Positions 50 to 4,113 of a stretch of 4,183 bases of DNA are shown here, piece after piece. The DNA lies in the sequence record PP430145.1; one strand, written 5' to 3'. The translations under genes and the position numbers were made by a program. Numbering within the stretch: position 1 is the first letter of the stretch; every line of letters begins with the position of its first letter. The notes beneath the pieces are model-generated. The model was not told where the DNA came from and ran no database searches. It worked only from the letters and a program-made list of their open reading frames with translations. The DNA is from Enterobacteria phage FrSangria.

Positions 50-1312
50 ATGCCTAAATTACCACGTGGTCTGCGTTTCGGAGCCGATAATGAAATTCTT
101 AATGATTTTCAGGAGCTCTGGTTTCCAGACCTCTTTATCGAATCTTCCGACACACACCCGTGGTACACACTGAAAGGCCGTGTGTTGAATGCCCATCTTG
201 ATGATCGCTTACCTAATGTAAGCGGTCGCCAGGTTAGGCGAACTCCACATCGTGTTACTGTTCCGATTGCCTCTTCAGGCCTTCGTCCAGTAACAACCGT
301 TCAGTATGATCCCACAGCACTATCGTTCTTATTGAACGCTCGTGTTGATTGGGATTTCGGTAATGGCGACAGTGCGAACCTTGTCATTAATGACTTTTTG
401 TTTCGCACCTTCGCGCCTAAGGAGTTCGATTTCTCGAATTCCTTAGTTCCTCGTTATAACCAGGCCTTCTCCGCTTTTAATGCCAAATATGGCACTATGA
501 TCGGTGAAGGGCTCGAGACTATAAAATATCTCGGGCTTTTACTGCGCAGACTGCGTGAGGGTTACCGCGCTGTGAAGCGTGGCGATTTACGTGCTCTTCG
601 CAGGGTTATCCAGACTTACCATAAAGGTAAATGGAAACCGACTACTGCTGGTAATCTCTGGCTCGAATTTCGTTATGGCCTTATGCCGCTCTTCTATGAC
701 ATCAGAGATGTCATGTTAGACTGGCAGAAACGTCATGATAAGATTCAACGCCTCCTCCGGTTTTCAGTTGGTCACGGCGAGGACTATGTTGTCGAATTTG
801 ACAACTTATATCCTGCTGTTACCTACTTTAAACTGAAAGGTGAGATTACACTCGAACGCCGTCATCGTCACGGCATATCTTACGCTAATCGCGAAGGATA
901 TGCTGTTTTCGATAACGGTTCCCTTCGGCCTGTGTCCGATTGGAAGGAACTTGCCACCGCATTCATCAATCCGCACGAGGTTGCATGGGAGTTAACTCCC
1001 TACAGTTTCGTTGTCGATTGGTTCTTGAATGTCGGTGACATACTTGCTCAGCAAGGTCAGCTATATCATAATATCGATATTGTAGACGGTTACGACAGAC
1101 GTGACATTCGCCTCAAATCTTTCACTATAAAAGGTGAACGAAATGGGCGACCTGTCAACGTTTCTGCCGACCTATCTGCTGTCGATACATTTTATAGTCG
1201 ACTTCATACTAGCAAGCTTCCGTTCGCTACACTCGATCTCGATACTACCTTCAGTTCGTATAAACACGTTCTTGATAGTATCTTTCTATTAACCCAACGC
1301 ATTAAGCGTTGA
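50..1312 (+). CDS. A2: Maturation protein A2 (pilus attachment protein; in Qβ-like phages also the lysis protein, inhibiting MurA)
   Basis: A 420-aa ORF from ATG 50 to TGA 1310-1312. The translation MPKLPRGLRFGADNEILNDFQELWFPDLFIESSDTHPWYTLKGRVLNAHLDD... agrees closely with Qβ A2 as I recall it. First gene in the order and the expected size for a Qubevirus maturation protein. Confidence 0.93.
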   Translation: MPKLPRGLRFGADNEILNDFQELWFPDLFIESSDTHPWYTLKGRVLNAHLDDRLPNVSGRQVRRTPHRVTVPIASSGLRPVTTVQYDPTALSFLLNARVDWDFGNGDSANLVINDFLFRTFAPKEFDFSNSLVPRYNQAFSAFNAKYGTMIGEGLETIKYLGLLLRRLREGYRAVKRGDLRALRRVIQTYHKGKWKPTTAGNLWLEFRYGLMPLFYDIRDVMLDWQKRHDKIQRLLRFSVGHGEDYVVEFDNLYPAVTYFKLKGEITLERRHRHGISYANREGYAVFDNGSLRPVSDWKELATAFINPHEVAWELTPYSFVVDWFLNVGDILAQQGQLYHNIDIVDGYDRRDIRLKSFTIKGERNGRPVNVSADLSAVDTFYSRLHTSKLPFATLDLDTTFSSYKHVLDSIFLLTQRIKR

Positions 1313-2339: not shown

Positions 2340-2359
2340 ATGCATGTCTAAGACAGCAT
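2340..2359 (+). promoter_or_regulatory. Translational operator hairpin (coat-protein binding site) containing the replicase start codon
   Basis: AUGCAUGUCUAAGACAGCAU folds as an 8-bp stem (2340-2343/2356-2359 and 2345-2348/2352-2355) with a bulged A at 2344 and a 3-nt loop UAA (2349-2351). The replicase AUG (2344-2346) sits in the stem. This matches the Qβ coat-protein operator architecture. Confidence 0.85.
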
Positions 2360-4113
2360 CTTCGCATAACTCTCCTAGCGCACAATTGCGCCGAGCTGCG
2401 AACACAAGAATTGAGGTAGAAGGTAACCTCGCACTTTCCATTGCCAACGATCTATTGTTGGCTTATGGTCAATCGCCATTTAGCTCCGAAGCCGAGTGTA
2501 TTTCATTCAGCCCGAGATTCGACGGGACCCCGGATGACTTTAGGATAAATTATCTTAAAGCCGAGATCATGTCGAAGTATGGCGATTTCAGCCTAGGTAT
2601 TGATACCGAAGCTGCTGCCTGGGAAAAGTTCCTGGCAGCAGAGGCTGAATGTGCTTTAACGAACGCTCGCCTCTATAGACCTGACTACAGTGAGGATTTC
2701 AATTTCTCACTGGGTGAGTCATGTATCCACATGGCTCGCAGAAAAATAGCCAAGTTAATAGGAGACGCGCCGTCCATTGAGGGTATGTTGCGTCACTGCC
2801 GATTTTCTGGCGGTGCCACAACAACGAATAACCGTTCGTACGGTCATCCGTCCTTCAAGTTTGCGCTTCCACAAGCGTGTACGCCTCGGGCTTTGAAGTA
2901 TGTTTTGGCTCTTAGAGCTTCTACACACTTCGATATCAGAGTTTCTGATATTAGCCCTTTTAATAAAGCAGTTACTGTACCTAAGAACAGTAAGACTGAT
3001 CGTTGTATTGCTATCGAGCCCGGTTGGAATATGTTTTTTCAACTAGGCGTTGGTGGCATTTTACGCGACCGGTTGCGTTGCTGGGGTATCGATCTGAATG
3101 ATCAGACGATAAATCAGCGTCGCGCTCACGAAGGCTCTGTCACTAATAACTTAGCGACGGTTGATCTCTCAGCGGCAAGCGATTCTATATCTCTTGCTCT
3201 CTGTGAGCTCTTATTGCCCCCAGGTTGGTTTGAAGTCCTTATGGACCTCAGATCACCGAAAGGGCGGTTGCCTGACGGTAGTGTTGTTACCTACGAGAAA
3301 ATATCCTCTATGGGTAACGGATACACATTCGAGCTTGAGTCGCTTATTTTTGCTTCTCTTGCCCGTTCCGTTTGTGAGATACTGGACTTAGACTCGTCTG
3401 AGGTTACTGTTTACGGAGACGATATTATTTTACCGTCCTGTGCAGTACCTGCCCTTCAGGAAGTTTTTAAGTATGTTGGTTTTACCACCAATACTAAAAA
3501 GACTTTCTCCGAGGGGCCGTTCAGAGAGTCGTGCGGTAAGCACTACTATTCTGGCGTAGATGTTACTCCCTTTTACATACGTCACCGTATAGTGAGCCCT
3601 GCCGATTTGATATTGGTTTTGAATAACCTATATCGGTGGGCCACAATTGATGGCGTATGGGATCCTAGGGCCTATTCCGTTTACCTCAAGTATCGTAAGT
3701 TGTTGCCTAAACAGCTGCAACGTAATACTATACCTGATGGTTACGGTGATGGAGCCCTCGTCGGATCGGTCTTGATCAATCCTTTCGCGAAAAACCGCGG
3801 GTGGATCCGGTATGTACCGGTGATCATAGACCATACAAGGGACCGAGAGCGCGTTGAATCGGGATCGTATCTCTACGATCTCTTTTCGCGTTGCTTCTCG
3901 GAAAGTAACGATGGGTTGCCTCTAAGGGGTCCGTCGAGTTGCGATTCTGTAAATCTGCTTGCTATCGACCAACTTATCTGCAGGAGCAATCCTACTAAGA
4001 TAAGCAGGTCTACTGGTAAGTTCGATATACAGTATATCGCGTGCAGTAGCCGTGTTCTGGCACCCTACGGGGTCTTCCAGGGCACGAAGGTTACATCTCT
4101 ACACGAGGTGTAA
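2344..4113 (+). CDS. rep: RNA-dependent RNA polymerase, replicase beta subunit (589 aa)
   Basis: ATG at 2344 gives MSKTASSHNSPSAQLRRAANTRIEVEGN..., ending at TAA 4111-4113. It contains the catalytic YGDD motif at 3412-3423 (VTVYGDDIILPS). The translation is near-identical to the Qβ replicase as I recall it. The ORF-track start at 2335 (MKCM...) is an in-frame upstream ATG and probably not the real start. Confidence 0.95.
   Translation: MSKTASSHNSPSAQLRRAANTRIEVEGNLALSIANDLLLAYGQSPFSSEAECISFSPRFDGTPDDFRINYLKAEIMSKYGDFSLGIDTEAAAWEKFLAAEAECALTNARLYRPDYSEDFNFSLGESCIHMARRKIAKLIGDAPSIEGMLRHCRFSGGATTTNNRSYGHPSFKFALPQACTPRALKYVLALRASTHFDIRVSDISPFNKAVTVPKNSKTDRCIAIEPGWNMFFQLGVGGILRDRLRCWGIDLNDQTINQRRAHEGSVTNNLATVDLSAASDSISLALCELLLPPGWFEVLMDLRSPKGRLPDGSVVTYEKISSMGNGYTFELESLIFASLARSVCEILDLDSSEVTVYGDDIILPSCAVPALQEVFKYVGFTTNTKKTFSEGPFRESCGKHYYSGVDVTPFYIRHRIVSPADLILVLNNLYRWATIDGVWDPRAYSVYLKYRKLLPKQLQRNTIPDGYGDGALVGSVLINPFAKNRGWIRYVPVIIDHTRDRERVESGSYLYDLFSRCFSESNDGLPLRGPSSCDSVNLLAIDQLICRSNPTKISRSTGKFDIQYIACSSRVLAPYGVFQGTKVTSLHEV

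Follow-up and report, generated by a model that had tools for sequence, protein, structure and literature searches.

The maturation protein A2 as the probable lysis protein of phage FrSangria, a Qβ-like genome in which no dedicated lysis gene is supported

Among the single-stranded RNA phages of Escherichia coli, a dedicated lysis gene is found in MS2 and GA but in neither Qβ nor SP. In Qβ, lysis was assigned to the maturation protein A2 in 1983, MurA was recognised as its target in 2001, and a structure of the complex of the two followed in 2017. Lysis results from the binding of Qβ A2 to MurA, which is thereby inhibited, and expression of A2 alone suffices to lyse cells. The murA allele L138Q makes the host resistant to A2. 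Resistant hosts of this ‘rat’ class are known for Qβ (Bernhardt et al., 2001), and a block of lysis by such alleles or by overproduced MurA belongs to the literature on that phage. The protein binds the closed, UDP-GlcNAc-liganded form of MurA via the tip of its β-region, and the A2-MurA complex has been resolved by cryo-EM (PDB 5VM7). According to Cui et al. (2017), as cited in PMC12856241, most of the MurA contacts are made by residues 30-120, and the shortest N-terminal fragment reported to be lytic comprises residues 1-180. In lysis assays with Qβ A2, position 418 has been found to tolerate deletion as well as exchange for Ser or Glu, whereas V418K abolished lysis; the V418K mutant is defective in cytosolic A2 lysis yet infectious (PMC12856241). 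The same work describes Qβ particles being released in the absence of functional A2, and its authors have suggested that an alternative lysis route may exist. That free Qβ A2 is sufficient for lysis is clear, whereas its exclusive necessity for Qβ lysis is debated.

The window analysed here, i.e., the whole stretch of 4,183 nt from the FrSangria genome, can be aligned over its entire length with Qβ-type genomes; it begins at about position 12-13 of the complete records and therefore lacks a few terminal nucleotides. Over the full length, the nucleotide identity amounts to 95.1% with the Qβ strain HL4-9 (FJ483841), 94.9% with FrMerlot and 94.2% with the laboratory Qβ clone AB971354, and to ∼75% with M11 and MX1. 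All four Pfam families are those expected for a Qβ-type genome, and the genome plan that marks Qubevirus/Allolevivirus members, with A2, coat, A1 via a leaky UGA and replicase, is present without a conserved extra ORF. Judged by these comparisons, FrSangria is a Qβ-like genome of Qubevirus durum. The encoded A2 and replicase match exactly the deposited proteins WZB35618.1 and WZB35621.1 (both Enterobacteria phage FrSangria), and the product of 50-1312 (WZB35618.1) has been deposited as ‘maturation-lysis protein A2’. In the preprint on this phage, FrSangria has been described as plaque-purified and as lysing E. coli in about 60 min, and the gene label “mat/lys” is given on its genome map.

The A2 maturation/lysis gene lies on the + strand at 50-1312 (ATG at 50, UGA at 1310-1312; Pfam Phage_mat-A), and the reading frame that the earlier note had delimited here bears out as an ATG-initiated ORF of 420 codons. 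Its frame (50 mod 3 = 2) differs from the one in which coat, A1 and replicase are all read (1333 mod 3 = 2344 mod 3 = 1), a sharing of frame which the same note had correctly recognised. The coat gene (1333-1734, + strand; Pfam Levi_coat, E = 6.3e-60) occupies the same position as in the relatives and ends with a leaky UGA at 1732-1734, behind which follows the 196-codon read-through domain of A1 and not the replicase. The A1 read-through protein (1333-2325, + strand; Pfam Read-through, E = 9.7e-97) ends in a tandem TAG-TAA stop, with the TAG at 2323-2325 and the in-frame TAA at 2326-2328. The latter opens the A1/replicase spacer (2326-2343, + strand), which continues with 15 nt containing the Shine-Dalgarno sequence AAGGAUG; the 15 nt of untranslated sequence (2329-2343) described before are therefore right when counted after the second stop, and become 18 nt (2326-2343) when counted from the first. 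Among 12 Qβ-like strains the spacer is nearly invariant, and it falls inside the segment of lowest synonymous diversity (2293-2394). The gene of the replicase β-subunit (2344-4113, + strand; 589 aa; Pfam RNA_replicase_B, E = 2.7e-217) begins with an ATG at 2344, in agreement with the start in all annotated relatives. A further in-frame ATG is located at 2335-2337, 9 nt upstream of this start and within the AAGGAUG stretch, and mechanical ORF callers place the replicase start there (MKCMSKT...), which no annotated relative does. In GQ153931, the replicase start codon is GTG.

Regarding A2 itself, residues 36-420 match the Pfam family PF03863 (Phage_mat-A) with E = 8.1e-137, and the protein matches phrog_4286 with E = 3.7e-142. 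Residues 1-420 align to residues 1-420 of the Qβ A2 chain in PDB 5VLZ, 5VM7 and 7LHD (E = 3.9e-284), and a match to Qβ A2 in PDB 5MNT has also been obtained. In a MAFFT alignment with 15 relatives, FrSangria A2 is 96.7% identical to laboratory Qβ A2 over its full length, with 14 substitutions in 420 aa and neither gaps nor insertions, so the comparison that the earlier note had proposed upholds its description of this protein as Qβ-like throughout. The substitutions relative to Qβ are G58S, A89T, T137N, S189T, N192K, A198T, N227K, A258T, F348Y, S374D, L380T, N389K, F404Y and V418I. Only three of them (G58S, A89T, T137N) fall into the equivalent of the lytic fragment named in PMC12856241 after Cui et al. 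(2017), i.e., codons 1-180 at 50-589 on the + strand, and each recurs in other plaque-forming isolates: G58S is common to the strains VK and BR12, and A89T to HL4-9, GIII_C, FrMerlot, BZ1, FrHibiscus and FrBurgundy. Within codons 30-120 (137-409, + strand), which correspond to the β-region with most of the MurA contacts in Qβ, only G58S and A89T differ from Qβ, the limits of this region being a second-hand definition taken from the citation of Cui et al. (2017) in PMC12856241. Three of the substitutions, all conservative, occur in no other Qβ-like strain (S189T, A258T, F348Y), and the residue introduced by each is present in M11/MX1 or SP/NL95. With V418I, FrSangria A2 has the residue that almost every natural isolate shows at this position. 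Codon 258 (821-823 of the window), which is T also in M11 and MX1, adjoins V257. For Qβ, an exchange of this valine for A (U830C, numbered 256 in that paper) has been described to prolong the latent period, possibly via the A2-MurA or the pilus interaction. Taken over all positions, no functional difference between FrSangria A2 and Qβ A2 is predicted.

By every feature checked in its sequence, FrSangria A2 is a member of the Qβ A2 family, and because of its near-identity to Qβ A2 we infer that it would be the lytic agent of this phage, with MurA as the putative target. The product of 50-1312 is the single-copy maturation protein, which in Qβ binds the genomic RNA and the F-pilus, and its exposed N-terminal β-region would be expected to bind closed, UDP-GlcNAc-liganded MurA in the same way. 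Such binding would block the first committed step of peptidoglycan synthesis, and growing cells would lyse as a result. We hold with high confidence that FrSangria is without a dedicated lysis gene and that A2 (50-1312) serves as both maturation protein and, via MurA, lysis protein. The proposal of the earlier note that A2 doubles as the lysis protein in a Qβ arrangement is thus supported by the Qβ layout of the genome, by the degree of A2 identity and by the lack of a credible second lysis ORF.

In this virus family, only the + strand is messenger. Accordingly ranked were the + strand ORFs of at least 20 aa, by their maximum Kyte-Doolittle mean over 17 residues and with a threshold of 1.6, which six ORFs in alternative frames reach. 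These are located on the + strand at 1907-2161 (84 aa, ATG, with two hydrophobic stretches, in the +1 frame within the A1 read-through domain), 2900-3046 (48 aa, ATG), 3647-3775 (42 aa, UUG start), 1134-1292 (52 aa), 840-995 (51 aa) and 342-446 (34 aa). When codons were shuffled synonymously 300 times with the four proteins preserved, 5.7 ± 1.7 hydrophobic ORFs were expected versus the 6 observed, and the best hydrophobicity and the longest length are likewise within this null. Across 13 relatives, five of the six ORFs have lost their start codon or have a truncated frame in close relatives, and 3647-3775 is open in all. No recognisable Shine-Dalgarno sequence has been found in the 20 nt upstream of any of the six, ten candidate peptides, compared with Pfam and PHROG at E ≤ 1, have matched no family, and the synonymous diversity of the host genes is not depressed over any of these ORFs, where it stays at or close to the gene mean or exceeds it (percentiles 0.43-0.76 among segments of the same size). 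The statement of the earlier note that there is no dedicated lysis gene therefore stands insofar as no such gene is supported, and has to be amended insofar as small hydrophobic ORFs do exist, in a number given by chance. A small membrane-protein ORF, which had been named there as evidence against the proposal, has been searched for in the alternative frames, and none is supported by conservation, synonymous diversity, shuffles or protein families.

Several of these frames have been rejected as genes individually. In Qβ, BR12 and BZ1 the ORF 1134-1292 ends prematurely, and M11 and MX1 have neither its start nor that of 342-446; the start of 840-995 is absent in HL4-9 and Qβ. The ORF 3647-3775 is without a Shine-Dalgarno sequence, is not hydrophobic in M11/MX1 and begins with a UUG that is part of the 3' arm of the highly stable stem-loop at ∼3576-3659 discussed below. 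On the opposite strand, the antisense ORF 1855-2298 (147 codons, − strand, opposite the A1 read-through domain) has been assigned to chance, as its length differs between strains, with 40 to 178 codons in the 12 Qβ-like ones and 20 in M11 and MX1; the minus strand is not known to be translated.

Taking into account the particle release reported for Qβ without functional A2 (PMC12856241), an Sgl ORF embedded in another frame of A1 or replicase might contribute to lysis or cause it, the more so as sgl genes within rep have been described in the literature as common among leviviruses, including metagenomic ones. The best candidates are 1907-2161 and 2900-3046, both with an ATG start and Kyte-Doolittle maxima over 17 residues of about 2.2, and in 10 of 12 Qβ-like strains the former begins with ATG or GTG and is open over all 84 codons. 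However, HL4-9, which is the closest relative, and MX1 have ACG at this start, and the frame closes after 29 codons in both TW18 and M11 and after 50 in MX1, whereas in laboratory Qβ, FrMerlot, TW18, FrHibiscus and FrBurgundy the third codon of 2900-3046 is a stop. The synonymous diversity of the host gene is also higher over both ORFs than the gene mean (0.163 vs 0.124 for 1907-2161 and 0.175 vs 0.139 for 2900-3046), and the shuffle null for count, hydrophobicity and length, the family scans and, for 1907-2161, the missing Shine-Dalgarno sequence count in the same direction. An embedded Sgl is therefore considered very unlikely, and 1907-2161 has been judged a chance ORF. That it is translated into an accessory membrane protein which aids or times lysis in some Qβ-like strains has been rated as highly improbable; if true, such a protein would fit the Qβ particle release without functional cytosolic A2 lysis. 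As a genus-level alternative, which the earlier note had brought up, we have also considered that an MS2-type L gene was missed at the coat/replicase junction through a non-canonical start or a frameshift, for which no point in favour has been found. An MS2-L-like ORF (∼75 codons, +1 frame, with a C-terminal hydrophobic domain) has not been detected at the junctions, where only ORFs of 21-37 aa exist and where 1731-1805, 1745-1858, 2216-2305 and 2286-2351 contain no hydrophobic runs of transmembrane length. The A1 domain behind the coat stop, in place of replicase, speaks against such a gene, as does the length variation of the coat-stop ORFs 1731-1805 and 1745-1858 among strains. Across the A1/replicase junction, 2286-2351 (21 aa, hydrophilic) is the only + strand ORF, and 2216-2305 (29 aa) ends just upstream of it, within A1. 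Both are unchanged in start and length throughout the 12 Qβ-like strains, but they adjoin the invariant replicase operator region, and the junction ORFs match no Pfam or PHROG family. The chance of an L gene missed in this way is practically nil, and as far as the sequence can tell, an MS2-type L gene in FrSangria is effectively refuted. The ORF 2216-2305 has been rejected as a gene on its own account: it is the only small ORF with low synonymous diversity (5th percentile), its hydrophobic run spans ∼10 residues, and it is not hydrophobic in M11/MX1. Because it adjoins the invariant operator region, its low diversity has been read as a constraint on RNA structure.

A further product has to be weighed against A2, since in laboratory Qβ a +1 shift at GAGGUUG near the replicase start has been reported to yield a lytic product of 67 aa (Nishihara et al., 2004, as cited in PMC12856241). 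By arithmetic on our alignment, this length fits 24 replicase residues followed by 43 residues of the +1 frame. In FrSangria, GAGGUUG as a site for shifting or restarting into an open +1 frame of 43 codons has not been found; the corresponding entry site (2413-2419, + strand) reads GAGGUAG. The +1 codon there is the stop UAG (2417-2419), and therefore the cryptic ORF cannot be entered at this site, a +1 shift being terminated at once. Downstream of it, the +1 frame is open for 42 codons, and re-initiation at a later UUG (2441) could give a product of 35 aa (2441-2548); this remnant, however, is without a hydrophobic segment (Kyte-Doolittle maximum over 17 residues of 0.32), and synonymous diversity over the cryptic +1 ORF is average. 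Of the 14 aligned genomes, 5 have UUG as the entry codon (both laboratory Qβ clones, BR12, M11 and MX1), 3 have UAG (FrSangria, GIII_C and TW18) and 6 have UCG, and in three strains (VK, BR12 and BZ1) only 12 codons of the frame behind the site are open. Lysis of FrSangria by such a replicase-proximal +1-frame peptide, whether made by a shift or by re-initiation at UUG, is thus extremely unlikely, even with the cryptic product cited for Qβ in PMC12856241 on its side. Its lack of conservation in natural isolates, together with its closure in FrSangria, argues against this ORF as the general back-up lysis route suggested in recent work.

Lysis by A2 remains the preferred reading, and the segments in which synonymous codons vary least can be given a different role. 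Among 12 Qβ-like genomes, the lowest synonymous diversity has been found at 2293-2394, which is the replicase start and operator region, at 4030-4107, the 3' end of replicase, at 2536-2616 and 2638-2712, both in the 5' part of replicase, and at 1289-1392, the coat start. In phage SP, the S and M regions are annotated as replicase-binding; in analogy to these, the segments named here are probably RNA cis elements and not overlapping genes. A long and highly stable RNA stem-loop has been detected at ∼3576-3659 in the replicase gene, with a minimum free energy of −38.2 kcal/mol (3560-3670) and z = −3.55, none of 200 shuffles being as stable. It appears to be the FrSangria stem-loop reportedly sensed by the defence nuclease ApeA, for which the preprint gives positions 3579-3668 in its own numbering and to which escape mutations have been mapped.

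Since the role of A2 in lysis is already known, and is already contained in the public annotation of the FrSangria genome, the analysis carries little weight as a discovery: the genome had been deposited with a “maturation-lysis protein A2”. Its value lies mainly in the quality control of annotation, an overlooked embedded lysis gene being not supported in FrSangria. In LC710219.1, the coat gene (1335-1736) has been labelled ‘lys: lysis protein A2’ and the A2 gene (52-1314) only ‘maturation protein’, which is an annotation mix-up. The 90%-identity cluster of the FrSangria replicase also holds many bacterial EF-Ts proteins (283 aa), a link that presumably arises via the fused EF-Ts/EF-Tu/β-subunit constructs made for Qβ replicase crystallography; this clustering is a database artefact and not biology.

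[quoted passage not shown] Peptidoglycan synthesis is not inhibited by L, and in FrSangria, unlike in MS2, the junction is taken by the A1 read-through domain and the 18-nt spacer. The cryptic Qβ ORF of Nishihara et al. (2004) has its homologous FrSangria region at 2413-2548, with the entry codon closed. Closer likeness is found in the natural Qβ-like isolates FrMerlot, FrHibiscus, FrBurgundy, HL4-9 and TW18, whose A2 proteins are 96.2-96.9% identical to that of FrSangria at a genome-wide nucleotide divergence of about 5%. The A2 products of FrMerlot, FrHibiscus and FrBurgundy have been annotated as ‘maturation-lysis protein A2’, and FrSangria is the fourth phage of this set. Within it, FrSangria alone is strongly restricted by the ApeA defence system, a difference that has been mapped in the preprint to the RNA stem-loop in rep and not to A2. 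The nearest described counterpart is Qβ A2 itself, which FrSangria A2 resembles in its length of 420 aa, in its position as the first gene, in the A1-containing genome layout and in its assignment to the species Qubevirus durum.
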